Part shown: in pieces, positions 24,862-31,288 of the stretch
Position numbering within the stretch: position 1 is the stretch's first letter
Layout: every line of letters starts with the position of its first letter
Sequence record: NC_100327.1
Source of the DNA: a phage
Reading direction: 5' to 3' (one strand)
Length of the DNA: 64,000 bases
Notes under the pieces: model-generated
Databases searched by the model: none
What the model was told of the DNA's origin: nothing
What the model saw: only the letters and a program-made list of their open reading frames with translations
Translations under genes and position numbers: made by a program

Positions 24862-26329
24862 CAGCCCTACTGATGTCCTGGCCCAAGAGCTTCATCAGCT
24901 CTTCCTGATCCATGTCCTCGTCAAATCTTTCATCAAACCCGCCTACTTCAAGAATCTTATTAATTACTGCAGGAGTTTTTGGCAAGTAACCTACAGCACC
25001 GATCCTCTGGACAAACTTGGAGAAGCTCTCCATGTCCACTTCTTCGATCAGACCAGGTTTCAGTTTAGGCATATCATCATCTTCAAGGATGATACCATTC
25101 AATGCCAGAAGCTGTGGGATAAGATCTTTATTGAAGGCCTCAGTGATAATATCTATATCACGCTGAACAAAATGACCATGGATAGACTGTTTTGACTCAG
25201 ACAGAGAGAAAGATCCGACGTTATCGTTACCGAGGTTAATAAAGCCAGCACCGAAACGGTCAAGAATCGCCTTCTTACGGGCATCAATCAAATCTTTAGT
25301 GGAATACTGCTTACCCATACCGTCAACCCCCTTCAGGGTCATGGAGTAAAGCTCTTTACCAGACTTATCTCTATCAGACGGAAGTATAAAGAAACTTTGC
25401 TCACCACTATGGGCGTTTGCTGCGTCAAGCATAAGGTCTGCAACCATTCTCCCTTCCATTGAATTCGGGTCAATGCTGGCCTTGTTCAAAATATTGGAAG
25501 GAATTTTCAGCTCAAGCACACCACCAAGGTCTTTGGAACAGCCAACAACCTCAAGGTTTTCAATCAGAACTTTCTCACGGAAAGATCTGTAGCAACCTAT
25601 CATTGGCGACACACCTGCAGGGTTAGATTCTGTTCCTGACAGAGTCATGAGCATAAGCTTTTTAGCAGGGATGAAAATTTCAGGCTCATTAAAGCCTTTT
25701 GAAGGCATTGCAGCAAGAGGTCCAGCCCAGCGTGCATTCTGAGTGTTTAGAAATGCATTAGGTGACTGATAAATACCTGTCAGTGTTCTACTATTCTTGT
25801 CAAAGACAAACGGCTCTGATCTGGACAAACTGGCCTGAGGTCGGAATGCAATTTTATCAATAAGAAGCATCCCGGCATATTTACCTTCTTTCTCTCTGCG
25901 GTATACTTTCTCAAACAGTGAAAAACCATACTCGTTAAAGGTAGCTGCGCTTCTTGCAATATCTCGAAGAGTTTGTTGGTTTGCCAAATTACGCAAAGAA
26001 TACTCTATAAGCTCGGCAGCTTTCTTAGAGTCTTCACTTTTAACATTATAAAGGATCTTAAAATCATTGAATGCTTTCGTGATGAAAACATACTTTGTAT
26101 CTAAGGCAGTAGCAACTGTGGAATCACATTTCATAGTCTCCACTGTAGCAATCAGCTGAGGCCAACGCAATTCCTCAACCATCATAGATTGCGATTCTGC
26201 CATAATTTGGGAAAGTGCGCCAGAACCGATCTCACTCATACGAACATTATGAGTTGGTGCGCCTGCGTTCCCAGATTTATTCACAGTTTTGGCTGTGGCG
26301 TTGTGTTTCCTGCGGTTCTTTTTGGACAC
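24773..26329 (-). CDS. portal protein
   Basis: 518 aa, immediately downstream of the terminase large subunit; size and position typical. Confidence 0.7.
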   Translation of the reverse strand: MSKKNRRKHNATAKTVNKSGNAGAPTHNVRMSEIGSGALSQIMAESQSMMVEELRWPQLIATVETMKCDSTVATALDTKYVFITKAFNDFKILYNVKSEDSKKAAELIEYSLRNLANQQTLRDIARSAATFNEYGFSLFEKVYRREKEGKYAGMLLIDKIAFRPQASLSRSEPFVFDKNSRTLTGIYQSPNAFLNTQNARWAGPLAAMPSKGFNEPEIFIPAKKLMLMTLSGTESNPAGVSPMIGCYRSFREKVLIENLEVVGCSKDLGGVLELKIPSNILNKASIDPNSMEGRMVADLMLDAANAHSGEQSFFILPSDRDKSGKELYSMTLKGVDGMGKQYSTKDLIDARKKAILDRFGAGFINLGNDNVGSFSLSESKQSIHGHFVQRDIDIITEAFNKDLIPQLLALNGIILEDDDMPKLKPGLIEEVDMESFSKFVQRIGAVGYLPKTPAVINKILEVGGFDERFDEDMDQEELMKLLGQDISRAGDGMAAGSTGNGTSKISSTRDNSISNMEN

Positions 26330-26431
26330 AAGCTTTACCCCTCAAAACAGTATAACAAAATAGCCCTCGTGTTAGAGGGCTAGTATCTCCGATTACTCTA
26401 TTCTACCACATCTAATTAAGATTGGCAACAC

Positions 26432-27217
26432 TTAGATAAAACGCTTGAACATAGAAGGTGATGAGATTGATGGAATCACACAAGGAAGTGCTACCTCCTC
26501 TTTCTCCAGGAAATTAATCGCAGAAGCTACACAGTCAGCCCAGTCGTCTTTTCTGTTAAATGTTGATCTTTCCCCGTTGAATTTTTCAAGTTCGGTCAGA
26601 AATGCTTCCAGAGTATCAGGATGGAAACTGGATTTTACAATCCTTACCATTCCTTGTTGGGCAAGATTGGCAAAAGGTGAGAACCTTGTCAGTTTAGACT
26701 TGTTGGAAGGCATTGGGTCTTCTTCAACCCTAAACCCTTCGGCGAGCAAGGATCTGGAGGAGGTTAAGAACTCACTCTTACCTGCCTGACCGGGGTCCAC
26801 AGAGAATACGATTATACAATCATCACCATCAAACTGCGCCTGTTTCCTGATGATCACATCTCGTTCACCAGCCTTTTTACAGAACTTGCCTTCCAGACCT
26901 GTGGAATACCTCCCGTCATCCACGTTCTCAGGACAATAATCACCGGACAGGTAATAAAAGCCGTCGCTATCTTTACTTACCTTAACACTGGCGGTAAAGT
27001 CAGGAAATTTATTACCGGAAGTTCTCTCGGTTCCTGCCTTATCCCATGCCCTGCAAGATACTGACCCAAGAGGTACTCTATCGGCATCACGAAGGAAAGA
27101 TCTTTGAAAATAGTTTGCACCCTCAGGCTTTGCAAACCAGTTACCATGGAGAAGCTGAGCTTTTTCCAGCTCTGGTAGACCTTCGAGGAAAGCAAGGTAT
27201 TCTGGGTTGTCTCTCAA
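26432..27217 (-). CDS. terminase large subunit, exon 3 (nuclease domain)
   Basis: Contains the RNase-H-like nuclease region (IIVFSVDPGQAGKSEF); the track start is TTG, so the real exon boundary lies upstream and is set by splicing. Confidence 0.75.
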   Translation of the reverse strand: MRDNPEYLAFLEGLPELEKAQLLHGNWFAKPEGANYFQRSFLRDADRVPLGSVSCRAWDKAGTERTSGNKFPDFTASVKVSKDSDGFYYLSGDYCPENVDDGRYSTGLEGKFCKKAGERDVIIRKQAQFDGDDCIIVFSVDPGQAGKSEFLTSSRSLLAEGFRVEEDPMPSNKSKLTRFSPFANLAQQGMVRIVKSSFHPDTLEAFLTELEKFNGERSTFNRKDDWADCVASAINFLEKEEVALPCVIPSISSPSMFKRFI

Positions 27218-28208
27218 ACAGACAGGATTATCGAATCCTTATATTCAAAGGTGGTCGCAACACCACCCTCCGCACCATTACGTGCTGCTGCATGTTACCA
27301 TGCAGAGTAGACTATATCACCACCCATCTCAGGGTGCTTCGCTTTTCGAGCGCCATAAGCTTGCGCCCTACTCCCTCTCGGGATAGTCGTTGAACTACAT
27401 TACCAATCGTAATTGTTTGAAATATAGGTGTAAGTCTTACGGTCTTTTATTCCTTTAACAACACTAAAACTTACTCCCCACTTCTTAGCTATTTTATTTA
27501 CACACAAAACCCTATCACTAAGATCCTCGCAGATACCTATTATCTTGTGCTCACTTATCCTATTAGAGGTTGGCACTTTTCTAAAGTTAAACTCTTTAGA
27601 AATATCTGGGTATACTGAGCCATTCTTTATACCACTTACAAGTGGTTGATTGACACCAAACATTTCACAAATGTCTTTTACCCTTGCACCTTGCTCTAAC
27701 AGCCTACATATTTCAAGAGCAGTGGCATCATCTAGGGACCTGTATTTATTGACATAGTCCTTTTTAAGTCCCATTTCATGAGCGTGATGTGTGTTTTCCT
27801 CAGGCGTTGTCCACTCAAGGTTCCATGCGGCGTTATTCAACTTATTACCATCCAGGTGGTTTACTTGAGTTTTCACGCTGGGATTATCATTATCAACAAA
27901 AGTCATAGCGATAACTCTATGGACTAGCACTTGGAACTTTTTCCCGCCCTCGCACAAAGTGACCATAGCATAGCCAGTCTTTTTCTGCACATTAGGATGG
28001 AGGAATTTATTAGAATACAGACTGTAAATTCTGCCATCGTATGTAGCACAATAATGATTGTAGCCTAAAAAGCCTAAATTTCTCATTTCAAACATCTCCC
28101 TACTACAGGTTCGGAAGGGTAATTATAGCTGCTGATTGTCCGTTTAGCAATCGGATTTTCCAGCAATTAACGAAGTTATTCGACGTGCATTTCTGCACGA
28201 AGCCACTA
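27218..28208 (-). mobile_element. group I intron (second intron in the terminase gene) carrying an HNH endonuclease ORF; boundaries approximate
   Basis: On the minus strand, in 5'-3' order: P-like AATTGCTGGAAA (28157-28168), Q-like CAATCAGCAGC (28128-28138), the ORF, R GTTCAACGACTATCC (27381-27395), S GATATAGTCTAC (27307-27318). Confidence 0.65.
27400..28095 (-). CDS. HNH homing endonuclease (intron-encoded)
   Basis: 231 aa; His/Asn-rich catalytic region (NHLDGNKLNNAAWNLEW) plus a C-terminal DNA-binding-like region; lies inside the intervening sequence. Confidence 0.75.
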   Translation of the reverse strand: MFEMRNLGFLGYNHYCATYDGRIYSLYSNKFLHPNVQKKTGYAMVTLCEGGKKFQVLVHRVIAMTFVDNDNPSVKTQVNHLDGNKLNNAAWNLEWTTPEENTHHAHEMGLKKDYVNKYRSLDDATALEICRLLEQGARVKDICEMFGVNQPLVSGIKNGSVYPDISKEFNFRKVPTSNRISEHKIIGICEDLSDRVLCVNKIAKKWGVSFSVVKGIKDRKTYTYISNNYDW

Positions 28209-28499
28209 TCATTTAATGGTTGCGCCTATAAACGAGAATGACAACGGTCTTGGCTTGATCTCCACACCCAGTCCGTTAACCGTGGTGTATTTCTCTATCA
28301 ACTCTTCTTTAGAGTCTCCCCAGATAAATTCACCGTCGCGTCGGATAAAATATCTTTTCTTACCGCATTTCTCCGGATCTGGATACCCTTCATCGTCCAA
28401 CCACCATCTAACCAGTTTGGCAAGCATGTGTTCTGAATCGGGGTTACAGCTGATAACCATTCTTGATGGATACTTTGACTGAGATCGCAGACGAGACAT
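28209..28499 (-). CDS. terminase large subunit, exon 2 (ATPase C-terminal segment)
   Basis: Contains RMVISCNPDSEHML, resembling the conserved ATPase coupling motif of large terminases; reading frame is interrupted on both sides. Confidence 0.7.
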   Translation of the reverse strand: MSRLRSQSKYPSRMVISCNPDSEHMLAKLVRWWLDDEGYPDPEKCGKKRYFIRRDGEFIWGDSKEELIEKYTTVNGLGVEIKPRPLSFSFIGATIK

Positions 28500-29412
28500 C
28501 AGGTAGTCTATCTGCTCCCATTCGAACTGTGTCGTTTATGTTCGGGCAAGGTCGCTAGTCTTGCCCCGCCATTTTCAGGCAGCTGCATGTCTCCATGCAG
28601 ACCAGACTATATCTTATGAATGTGCAAATACTCTGCCGCTCTAAGAATAGTTTCCTCATCCTCTTGGAAGAAACCTAAAGCTCTGTTGCATTTATCACAA
28701 AGCAACCCTCTTACAGCACCAGTTTTATGGTCATGATCAACACAAAAGAAATCTCTGTACCCTTGCGTCCTATACTCATCAAGAGATATTCTACAAATGG
28801 CACACTTATGATCTTGATCTGAGAGTAGACGATAGTATTCATCTTTTGTTATGTGAAATTTCTTCTCAATCTGATAAAACTTTTCACACATCTTACACCT
28901 GTTCGTAACCAGATATACTTTACCATAGTCACGTTTTGTGTAAAAACTATCAGCGAGCATACTTTCATGACAAGATTTGCATTCAAAAAGTTCACCTTTC
29001 TTCAGCAAGTCTTGAATAAATAATGCTGCGTCATCTCTCTTAACCATATTTTTGTTTCTACGAGATCCACCATTCCTGTAGTACATATAGCATTCCTTGC
29101 ATGTACCTGAGTATCCATCCTTGCTCTTAGATGATAAAAAGAAATCATCAATAGGTAGAACTCTTTGGCAATCCATACATTTTTTAGTATTACACATTCA
29201 CCCTCCCGTTTCGAATCGCTTGATTCTACGTCTTTCGACTAGTCGTTGAACGTTCATCCTCTCGGATGCTTCGCTGCGGATTATCTAAATTAACACACTG
29301 TTACCATACCTTCGATCTCTCTTCGAAGCCTCTATCATGTTACCATGACAGGTTGGTGGTGTCAATAATAAAGATTTCCCCGCAATTAGGGAGGTTTTAC
29401 GAGAGCTACAAA
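28500..29412 (-). mobile_element. group I intron (first intron in the terminase gene) carrying an Endo VII-type HNH endonuclease ORF; boundaries approximate
   Basis: Minus strand: P AATTGCGGGGAAA (29375-29387), Q AATCCGCAGCG (29272-29282), R GTTCAACGACTAGTC (29237-29251), the ORF, S AAGATATAGTCTGG (28602-28613) overlapping the ORF stop codon. Confidence 0.7.
28607..29197 (-). CDS. HNH / endonuclease VII-like homing endonuclease (intron-encoded)
   Basis: 196 aa, Cys-rich; DHDHKTGAVRGLLCDKCN matches the T4 endonuclease VII / HNH core as I recall it. Confidence 0.75.
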   Translation of the reverse strand: MCNTKKCMDCQRVLPIDDFFLSSKSKDGYSGTCKECYMYYRNGGSRRNKNMVKRDDAALFIQDLLKKGELFECKSCHESMLADSFYTKRDYGKVYLVTNRCKMCEKFYQIEKKFHITKDEYYRLLSDQDHKCAICRISLDEYRTQGYRDFFCVDHDHKTGAVRGLLCDKCNRALGFFQEDEETILRAAEYLHIHKI

Positions 29413-29841
29413 TTAACCCTCATCGAAGCAAACCATGGTGTACTCAAGCCCCTGATGGTTAAGCTTATCTTGTACATACTCCATATGGCAGTATTTTACA
29501 ACAGCTCCCTTTTTGCTTCTATCCCACTTACCAGTGTTCGGATCAAACCGTGGAAAAATGAACTTATGATCCTTCTCTCTGAACTTTGGCTTAATGTTTT
29601 CAGGCAGATCACTATAAATAGCTACTGCTTTAGGCCATAGTCCACCCTCACCTTCCAACTGTGGGGTTGTTCTTCGGAACATAACCACAGAGCTGTGGGG
29701 GTCATCAATAATTTTAAGTGGCATCAACTGCAAGAGGAACGACTTGCCAGACCCTGCGGCACCGCCGATTACCAAAATATCTGCATCGTTTTCTAGGATC
29801 ATCTTCTGCTTTTCAGAACACGGTCCGTAAATCTTAGACAT
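29413..29841 (-). CDS. terminase large subunit, exon 1 (ATPase N-terminal segment)
   Basis: ATG with AAGGAGAG RBS; Walker A (GGAAGSGKS) and Walker B (MVCFDE); frame ends in a stop just after the Walker B motif, where the intron begins. Confidence 0.85.
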   Translation of the reverse strand: MSKIYGPCSEKQKMILENDADILVIGGAAGSGKSFLLQLMPLKIIDDPHSSVVMFRRTTPQLEGEGGLWPKAVAIYSDLPENIKPKFREKDHKFIFPRFDPNTGKWDRSKKGAVVKYCHMEYVQDKLNHQGLEYTMVCFDEG

Positions 29842-30128
29842 TAACCTCTCTCCTTTGGAAACAGTGTTCTAATATAGTCTTGCAAAATGATCAATTTAGC
29901 TCTATCATTGCTACAAGACAGATTATTATCCCTCATAATGCCAGAATTCACTGCATCTGGCGCACCTTTCTTCAAAGGCATAGCTTTAGCAGGTGGTTTC
30001 ATGGCACCTTCCGGGGGTTTAACAATCAACCTTCCTACATCCGGAGGGTCAATCTTGTATTCTCTCTCAACGCTGGTTGCACACCCACATAATAACAAGC
30101 ACACAATAAACAGTGTAGCAACTCTCAT
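29841..30128 (-). CDS. o-spanin (Rz1-like outer-membrane lipoprotein) candidate
   Basis: 95 aa; signal-like N-terminus with LLLCGC Cys motif; Pro-rich (PPDVGRLIVKPPEGAMKPPAKAMP); 4-nt overlap with the upstream gene. Confidence 0.5.
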   Translation of the reverse strand: MRVATLFIVCLLLCGCATSVEREYKIDPPDVGRLIVKPPEGAMKPPAKAMPLKKGAPDAVNSGIMRDNNLSCSNDRAKLIILQDYIRTLFPKERG

Positions 30129-30523
30129 CTACCCTCCTGATTAATACTCTCATTATAAATATCTATAAGCTGATCAGGGAGTGTTGACTTCTTACCCTCA
30201 GGTGACTGGAGGTAAATAATCTGCTTTTCTTTACCTGCCTTCTCAGCCATATTTAATTTATCCTGTAGATCAGAAAGGGATTTTTCAAGGTTTTTAACCT
30301 CCTCTGCGTGGCCCATTTTAATTTTGTCGGCCTGCTTTTGTTGCTGATCAAGGATCCGTTCCCACTTTAACTCTGTTGCTGACACACCTTCTTGGTAGGC
30401 ATCATTAAGCTTAGAGTTAAACCAATACACGGCCCCAAGATAAGCTGTACCTATCGCAGCTGCAAAAACTAAACCTTTTATGATCCCTCTATACCTGCTC
30501 AGCCATGTTAAAACTGAAATCAT
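30125..30523 (-). CDS. i-spanin (Rz-like) candidate
   Basis: 132 aa; N-terminal transmembrane segment (GLVFAAAIGTAYLGAVYWF) followed by a charged coiled-coil region; overlaps the o-spanin candidate. Confidence 0.55.
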   Translation of the reverse strand: MISVLTWLSRYRGIIKGLVFAAAIGTAYLGAVYWFNSKLNDAYQEGVSATELKWERILDQQQKQADKIKMGHAEEVKNLEKSLSDLQDKLNMAEKAGKEKQIIYLQSPEGKKSTLPDQLIDIYNESINQEGR

Positions 30524-31189: not shown

Positions 31190-31288
31190 GGTGCTAGGTG
31201 ATGGAATCGAACCACCTATGTATTCAACGACTACCTCGTCTATTTTCAGGATTAAAAATCCTCGCCCTTGCCAAAGGGCTTACCTAGC
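31190..31288 (-). ncRNA. non-canonical tRNA-like RNA (99 nt; identity unresolved)
   Basis: 7-bp acceptor-like helix GCTAGGT/ACCTAGC, D-like hairpin, canonical T-arm (GGTGG TTCGATT CCATC), but ~20 nt too long with a GGATT-TTT-AATCC hairpin in place of a normal anticodon arm. Confidence 0.4.

Follow-up and report, generated by a model that had tools for sequence, protein, structure and literature searches.

The terminase large subunit gene (terL) of the phage in sequence record NC_100327.1 lies in three pieces on the minus strand, at positions 26432 to 29841 of the 64,000-nucleotide (nt) stretch of DNA that we analyzed (the window). We conclude with high confidence that terL of this rV5-like coliphage is split by two mobile group I introns, each of which holds a nuclease gene in a peripheral loop. 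An earlier note on this DNA, made from the letters alone, had proposed two such introns, each with its own HNH homing endonuclease. On the basis of that proposal, we compared the locus with intron-less alleles, with covariance models, and with protein families. The elements of the locus, with the evidence for each in parentheses, are the following, where ORF stands for open reading frame.

29416..29841, minus strand: terL exon 1, amino acids 1 to 142, ending in DEG (ORF; Pfam Terminase_6N; junction from the PDX allele, which lacks the intron, and from translation of the spliced sequence)
28533..29415, minus strand: group I intron 1, 883 nt, T4 td-like in its 3′ region (Rfam RF00028; limits from alleles without the intron)
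28607..29197, minus strand: intron 1 ORF, 196 amino acids, endonuclease VII/ββα-Me type with N-terminal CxxC repeats, looped from P8 (Pfam, PDB, PHROGs)
28216..28532, minus strand: terL exon 2, amino acids 143 to 248, TQFEW...SFIGAT-I (joined directly to exon 1 in PDX and to exon 3 in navn)
27237..28215, minus strand: group I intron 2, 979 nt, with P2, P9 to P9.2, and putative P7.1 and P7.2 (Rfam; limits from alleles without the intron)
27400..28095, minus strand: intron 2 ORF, 231 amino acids, an HNH endonuclease resembling I-HmuI, with a helix-turn-helix at the C terminus, looped from P6 (Pfam, PDB, PHROGs)
26432..27236, minus strand: terL exon 3, amino acids 248 to 515, nuclease/RNase H-like domain, stop codon included (Pfam Terminase_6C)

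terL reads as one gene across two exact junctions

The earlier note had located terL in ORFs at 29413..29841, 28209..28499, and 26432..27217 on the minus strand, and the three pieces are indeed found there, in three different frames. When searched separately against Pfam, the first two pieces match Terminase_6N (25.6 and 19.1 bits) and the third matches Terminase_6C. These coordinates are correct as limits of the ORFs but are not the splice sites; the true exons are 29841-29416, 28532-28216, and 27236-26432. Removal of both introns yields one uninterrupted ORF for a TerL of 515 amino acids, in which Terminase_6N scores 72.2 bits over amino acids 25 to 294, a span that crosses both junctions, and Terminase_6C scores 27.9 bits over amino acids 394 to 489. 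This one polypeptide carries the Walker A motif GGAAGSGKS, the Walker B motif MVCFDE, and a C-terminal RNase H-like nuclease, and it is 60% identical to the TerL of Pectobacterium phage CB7. Intron 1 breaks the Walker B region (MVCFDEG-TQF; here and below, the hyphen marks the insertion point), and intron 2 breaks GATI-FDNP close to where the ATPase domain ends. When PDB chains were searched with the sequence of the spliced TerL, only chance matches to collagen adhesins came up (E of ∼0.4); thus, the span of the Pfam profile, rather than a solved TerL structure, was used to judge the junctions.

The exact boundaries come from natural alleles. Alignment to an intron-less terminase had been suggested in the earlier note as a way to place the splice sites, and the alleles of PDX, navn, Murica, pangalan, B9-1, and others proved to be collinear through exactly the predicted junctions. 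Intron 1 is absent at exactly its limits in PDX, Murica, pangalan, and others, and intron 2 is absent at exactly its limits in navn, LL12, Murica, and others. An in-frame stop codon lies directly past each 5′ splice site (GGU-UAA and AU-U AAA UGA), so that unspliced RNA could only give a truncated protein. An intein was considered at these sites and rejected, since each insert starts with an in-frame stop codon and folds into an RNA core.

Can the three pieces instead be three separate polypeptides that assemble, with free-standing endonuclease genes between them and no RNA splicing? In-frame start codons do exist within exon 2 (ATG, 28499) and exon 3 (TTG, 27217), and as a result ORF callers annotate three "terminase" coding sequences (CDSs) in many GenBank records. 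However, the exons reach 33 nt and 19 nt upstream of these start codons, and the upstream parts encode the conserved segments TQFEWEQIDYL and FDNPVC, both of which are present in intron-less alleles. Ahead of 28499 and 27217, no Shine-Dalgarno sequence was seen. In addition, both endonuclease ORFs are flanked by group I cores that are kept in ORF-less alleles at 85 to 87 bits, and the RNA helices of intron 2 show compensatory changes, as described below. We therefore consider an unspliced, three-part TerL extremely unlikely.

Both intervening sequences carry group I intron cores

The comparisons in this section support both intervening sequences as genuine group I introns, because covariance-model matches, splice sites with a U·G pair and a terminal G, a restored reading frame, intron-less alleles, and compensatory covariation (in intron 2) all point the same way. 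An Rfam scan of the whole window at the gathering threshold returned tRNAs only. Group I matches surfaced when an E-value threshold was applied to the sub-region, three in total, all to the Rfam group I model RF00028 (Intron_gpI; gathering score, 50), and they cover both intervening sequences, the outcome that the earlier note had made a check of its proposal. Intron 1 of the window is matched end to end (28583-29425; 47 bits, E = 4.5e-10), and intron 2 is matched in two halves split by its ORF (27864-28225, 24.3 bits, E = 0.0028; 27288-27526, 34.9 bits, E = 1.9e-06). Among natural alleles, the ORF-less intron 1 of rV5 scores 84.9 bits and the ORF-less intron 2 of the record "Campylobacter phage A112b" scores 87.5 bits (E = 8.4e-22), both above the gathering score, as is the ORF-containing intron 1 of navn (50.3 bits), which is near-identical to the window copy. 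For both introns, precise removal restores the reading frame.

All eight motifs quoted in the earlier note are present on the minus strand in the order P-Q-R-S, which is far beyond chance. In intron 1, P lies at 29387-29375, Q at 29282-29272, R at 29251-29237, and S at 28615-28602; in intron 2, the corresponding positions are 28168-28157, 28138-28128, 27395-27381, and 27318-27307. P1 of intron 1 is GAGGGU·UA (GAGGGUUA) / UAGCUCUC, with the U·G pair at 29416, the internal guide ...GCUCUC, and the terminal (omega) G at 28533. P1 of intron 2 is CCAUUA/UAGUGG, with the U·G pair at 28216 and the terminal G at 27237. In both introns, P1 with its U·G pair, P3, P7, and the helix that closes the ORF loop (P8 or P6) are all perfectly paired. 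Minimum free energy folds of the two J7/3 segments (P7 to P3′) consist of exactly two hairpins each, candidates for the P7.1 and P7.2 of IA introns (z = −0.02 and −1.06).

Compensatory changes were analyzed for intron 2, using seven cores from the genera Vequintavirus, Avunavirus, and Justusliebigvirus. Compensatory double changes were found in 17 of the 70 predicted pairs, distributed over P2, P5, P7.2 (which holds two), P8, P9, P9.1, and P9.2; P1 is invariant, and 4 of the 70 pairs contain a nonstandard cell. Intron 2 with an HNH ORF also occurs at the identical site in Avunavirus 24-2-1 (∼75% identity) and in Justusliebigvirus UAB_1 (∼72%). A further match to the 3′ end of intron 2, in phage phiTE, was rejected as a terL intron: it sits in an nrdA intron, which indicates that this 3′ segment is a generic part of introns in this phage intron family. 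The last 80 nt of intron 1 at its 3′ end (S/P9 region) are ∼82% identical to the T4 td intron, a likeness limited to the 3′ region. Introns 1 and 2 were also compared as possible recent duplicates, and this was rejected; as a whole, their cores share ∼55% identity, and R, S, and P9 are the only parts that are near-identical. By this comparison, they are introns of the same class and not recent copies of each other.

The introns encode nucleases of two families in different loops

The earlier note had assigned an HNH-type endonuclease to each intron and had placed the two ORFs in different loops. The loops are as described, with the intron 1 ORF lying between R and S (P8) and the intron 2 ORF lying between Q and R (P6). 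The HNH assignment stands for intron 2; the intron 1 protein belongs to Endonuclease_7 and is HNH-like at the superfamily level only.

In the Pfam search, Endonuclease_7 (PF02945) was the sole match of the intron 1 ORF (76 bits; cutoff, 23.6), and no HNH domain was found. PHROGs likewise returned endonuclease VII (3.9e-33), and PDB returned Hpy99I (E = 9.6e-06) and T4 endonuclease VII (E = 5.9e-04); the sole HNH-labelled PHROG match was weak and fell on the N-terminal zinc-finger region. Endonuclease_7 belongs to the same ββα-Me/His-Me finger superfamily as HNH. Judged by these profiles, the protein is HNH-like at the ββα-Me level and not a canonical HNH endonuclease. The AUG of the ORF lies within the 5′ strand of P8, and its UAG stop lies within the S element; the closing helix of P8 is GAAUGUG/CACAUUC. 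Just upstream of the ORF, the sequence GGGAGG forms the P3′ strand, so that folding of the core could mask the ribosome-binding site of the ORF.

The intron 2 ORF matches Pfam HNH_3 (28 bits; cutoff, 24.8) and HTH_23, as well as the HNH endonucleases of PHROG_59 (7.8e-51). Its match to I-HmuI (PDB 1U3E; E = 4.1e-12) places it in the I-HmuI type of HNH proteins. The UAA stop lies within the 3′ strand of P6, whose closing helix is AUUACC/GGUAAU. The true start is likely the ATG at 28086, 9 nt after GGGAG; phiWec193 annotates a shorter, 687-nt CDS for this ORF. A scan of promoters and terminators gave 13 promoter-like sites compared to 9.4 in shuffled sequences, which is no enrichment. One sigma-70-like site (TTGCTA-17-TATAAT, 10 of 12 matches; 28150-28122, minus strand) falls within intron 2, where it overlaps Q and P6. 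It precedes the HNH ORF by ∼30 nt and could serve as a promoter for that ORF alone, although the lack of enrichment over shuffles makes it only a lead.

In ORF-less alleles, the entire hairpin is swapped for a short unrelated one, of 18 nt in P8 (rV5) and ∼21 nt in P6. Thus, the ORFs behave as cassettes that are separate from the ribozyme.

Several observations weigh against our interpretation of two working introns with active nucleases. The ORF-containing copies of the window score below the Rfam gathering score for both introns, and the folding support for P7.1 and P7.2 is not statistically distinctive by its z scores. Endonuclease activity and specificity are predicted entirely from homology for both ORFs, and the open-access literature yielded neither RNA evidence nor biochemistry on the terL introns of any Vequintavirus, this phage included. 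The low scores are accounted for by the ORF insertions of 580 to 730 nt in the loops, which cost score, because the near-identical navn copy and the ORF-less copies score higher.

One potential explanation for such scores is that one or both introns are decaying relics that splice poorly, or that the ORFs are inactive, as in the degenerating phase of the homing cycle. The ORF-less derivatives of both introns that are common in the population fit this explanation as well. However, the core helices are intact, and both ORFs are full length, with catalytic motifs intact in the alignments to Hpy99I/endonuclease VII and to I-HmuI. Moreover, an intron in terL must splice for the phage to be isolated, since TerL is essential. 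Taken together with the effect of the loop insertions on the scores, these observations make decay quite unlikely and favor intact introns.

Introns and ORFs occur independently among near-identical phages

By sequence identity, the source phage is an rV5-like coliphage of the genus Vequintavirus. It is 99.2% identical to the Escherichia phages phiWec193 and phiWec196 across the full 3.65-kb region 26300-29950, and more than 120 further Vequintavirus (rV5-like) genomes match this region in pieces, at 95 to 99% identity. The gene neighbors of terL, a portal-like gene downstream and the o-spanin and i-spanin genes directly upstream followed by a tRNA cluster, are consistent with this assignment.

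To compare the intron states in this population, we used a query of 3,651 nt; past the first 30 matches, the genome counts were extrapolated from 60 of 155 records sampled. The matches fall into coverage classes that fit the sizes expected for each intron state, as listed here.

100% coverage: intron 1 with ORF, intron 2 with ORF (6 records: phiWec193, phiWec196, and four "Campylobacter phage" records)
84% coverage: intron 1 ORF-less, intron 2 with ORF (rV5 type, 4 records, rV5 being deposited twice)
76% coverage: intron 1 absent, intron 2 with ORF (PDX type, 3 records)
73% coverage: intron 1 with ORF, intron 2 absent (∼23 records)
64% coverage: both introns ORF-less (A147, C11)
57% coverage: intron 1 ORF-less, intron 2 absent (LL12 type)
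56% coverage: intron 1 absent, intron 2 ORF-less (C9, WM, A112b)
49% coverage: both introns absent (roughly half of the records; Murica, FFH2, several BASEL phages)

Eight of the nine possible combinations of absent, ORF-less, and ORF-containing introns occur among Vequintavirus genomes that are at least 95% identical (∼125 genomes). The one class missing from the sampled Vequintavirus records was that expected at 80% coverage, in which intron 1 has its ORF and intron 2 is ORF-less. This independent assortment supports mobility of both introns and their independent invasions, the latter being a conclusion that the earlier note had drawn from the positions of the ORFs, and it also speaks against a need for either nuclease in packaging.

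The last point bears on another possible role for the HNH-type proteins, namely, that they are not homing endonucleases but terminase accessory factors for DNA packaging or cos cleavage, like gp74 of phage HK97 (Kala et al. 2014, as cited in PMC7344957). Both nuclease genes do lie inside the terminase gene, and the paper on phage CB7 (PMC7344957) raises this idea for HNH genes associated with terL. Yet about half of the sampled near-identical Vequintavirus genomes lack both ORFs, and many lack both introns, in phages that are viable (Murica, FFH2, pangalan, and BASEL phages). The ORFs sit in intron loops and are gained and lost as cassettes, and the intron 2 ORF shows full-length homology to I-HmuI, an intron homing nickase. 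An accessory role in packaging is thus very unlikely, and a homing role is favored for both ORFs.

The exon bases next to the insertion sites also differ between alleles. At site 1, the exon bases are GGT-ACA with the intron versus GG(C/A) ACG without it, and at site 2, they are ACC AT-A versus ACA AT(A/T), in 12 of 12 alleles. These synonymous third-codon bases, which flank the sites at 29416-29418/28530-28532 and 28216-28218, covary strictly with the presence of the intron. P1 is built with these exon bases, among them the U that pairs with G, and the needed U and C are found only in intron-bearing alleles. The pattern in the alleles fits co-conversion together with selection for splicing; the fixed differences could be co-conversion tracts, a requirement of P1, or target variants resistant to the nuclease.

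The locus is a clean natural series: lytic coliphages that are otherwise near-identical and easily grown differ in whether each intron is missing, lacks an ORF, or contains one. Such a series could serve to quantify homing and co-conversion, as well as possible competition between phages, at a gene essential for packaging.

Some of the records compared carry an unexpected host. Sixteen to 18 GenBank records named "UNVERIFIED: Campylobacter phage" (MG0656xx, e.g., MG065682 and MG065644) are 97 to 98% identical to the phage of the window and are classed at NCBI as Vequintavirus, with the host given as C. jejuni, from chicken. This host label looks wrong or due to contamination. Together with phage WM, these records are the only sources of the ORF-less intron 2 alleles used here.

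Relation to known introns

Two terL introns have been described before in rV5, the type phage of the genus, and the elements described here are of a textbook kind rather than a new one. The rV5 record (GenBank DQ832317) gives terL as a join of three segments ("ORF64ABC") and ORF65 as an HNH homing endonuclease. The rV5 paper (Kropinski et al. 2013, Virol J 10:76, PMC3606486) contains a section headed "Introns in terminase" and acknowledges D. Shub's assistance with finding the intron. The window shares with rV5 the gene, both insertion sites, both introns (97 to 99% identical), and the HNH endonuclease of intron 2. The difference lies in intron 1, which is ORF-less and 319 nt long in rV5, whereas that of the window has the 196-amino-acid ORF in place of the 18-nt P8 hairpin.

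For other members of the genus, the LL12 record and its genome announcement describe terL as intron-containing, and the BASEL paper annotates intron boundaries for its phages. The configuration with two ORFs is present in the database without being annotated: the CDSs of phiWec193, including its terL pieces, are labelled "hypothetical protein," and the four "Campylobacter phage" records with this configuration carry no annotation. The record of navn splits terL into separate "terminase" CDSs. The exact splice coordinates given here permit a correct joined terL CDS. Within the open-access literature, we found no paper on the nine-state polymorphism and no splicing experiment on a Vequintavirus.

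Splicing has been demonstrated in a related phage. In Pectobacterium phage CB7, the splicing of a terL intron that holds an HNH gene was shown by reverse transcription-PCR (RT-PCR) and Sanger sequencing (PMC7344957). CB7 (Certrevirus, Vequintavirinae) belongs to the same subfamily as the phage of the window, and its HNH-bearing group I intron (Rfam, 35.2 bits; ∼385-1349 of the stretch examined) likewise lies at the Walker B motif of terL. Its terL has a single intron, however, inserted at GVD-EGTQF, 6 nt upstream of the DEG-TQF site, and we therefore rejected the possibility that it shares the insertion of intron 1. Because of this 6-nt offset, the CB7 RT-PCR gives only indirect experimental support for splicing in the window.

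The Walker B region of terL holds at least three group I insertion sites in the subfamily: HQG-LQY (24-2-1), GVD-EG (CB7), and DEG-TQF (the window). The HQG-LQY intron of Escherichia phage 24-2-1 (Avunavirus) is ORF-less (Rfam, 34.5 bits; ∼1227-1467 of the stretch examined), and the upstream "terminase" CDS of this phage is much longer than exon 1 of the window.

Among more distant systems, the T4 td intron, which encodes I-TevI, resembles intron 1: both are phage group I introns that interrupt an essential gene and whose nuclease ORF loops out from a peripheral helix. The td intron differs in its gene, which is td and not terL, in its ORF, which is of the GIY-YIG type and not endonuclease VII/ββα-Me, and in the loop that holds the ORF, which is P8 in intron 1. 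The td intron belongs to subgroup IA2, and its ORF sits in P6. I-HmuI, an HNH nicking homing endonuclease from the DNA polymerase intron of Bacillus phage SPO1, aligns with the intron 2 ORF over 144 amino acids, including the HNH motif. The host gene and target of I-HmuI are different, and the likeness is one of sequence. The first group I intron described in terL is that of Lactobacillus phage LL-H, according to PMC3606486, where Mikkonen & Alatossava 1995 is cited. LL-H is likened here by description; unlike the window, it has a single intron and is a siphovirus of a Gram-positive host.

Predicted splicing, homing, and possible interference

On our interpretation, the terL pre-mRNA would fold into two ribozyme cores, with the nuclease genes in the peripheral loops (P8 and P6) expected to leave the cores undisturbed. 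Each core would use exogenous guanosine to cut after the U of the P1 U·G pair (after 29416 and after 28216). The exons would then be ligated after the terminal G (28533 and 27237), giving an mRNA for one TerL of 515 amino acids. In a mixed infection, the intron nucleases would be expected to cut or nick an intron-less terL near the insertion site, and recombinational repair from the intron-bearing genome would copy the intron together with the adjacent exon bases, that is, homing with co-conversion.

Interference competition has been shown for the intron endonuclease of ΦPA3 against ΦKZ (Birkholz et al., Science 2024, PMC11620839). By analogy, the nucleases of the window might cut the terL of rival Vequintavirus phages at the Walker B and FDNP codons and so cripple packaging, a role that we put forward tentatively and with considerable doubt. 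If it were true, the fixed synonymous differences in intron-less phages (GGC ACG and ACA ATA) would be resistance alleles, and the coexistence of eight of nine states among phages that are at least 95% identical would be accounted for.

Neighboring features

Outside terL, one further element lies at its 3′ end:
26361..26382, minus strand: terminator-like hairpin and T-run after terL (a Rho-independent terminator is annotated in the corresponding position of rV5)

In the tRNA cluster, a tRNA-like gene of 97 to 99 nt (31192-31288, minus strand) lies between tRNA-Thr and tRNA-Ser and scores 35.5 bits with Rfam (gathering score, 29). In ARAGORN it appears as "tRNA-???" with an anticodon of 4 bases; in the alignment to the covariance model, its anticodon loop reads UUUUUAA and its variable region holds ∼26 inserted nt. 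The rV5 record annotates six tRNAs in the equivalent cluster, this gene not among them.

The o-spanin and i-spanin genes (29841-30128 and 30125-30523, minus strand) lie directly upstream of terL and not in a lysis cassette. The o-spanin gene is a lipoprotein-like ORF whose stop codon overlaps the terL start codon, and some GenBank records, navn among them, mislabel it as a terminase subunit ("putative large terminase subunit").

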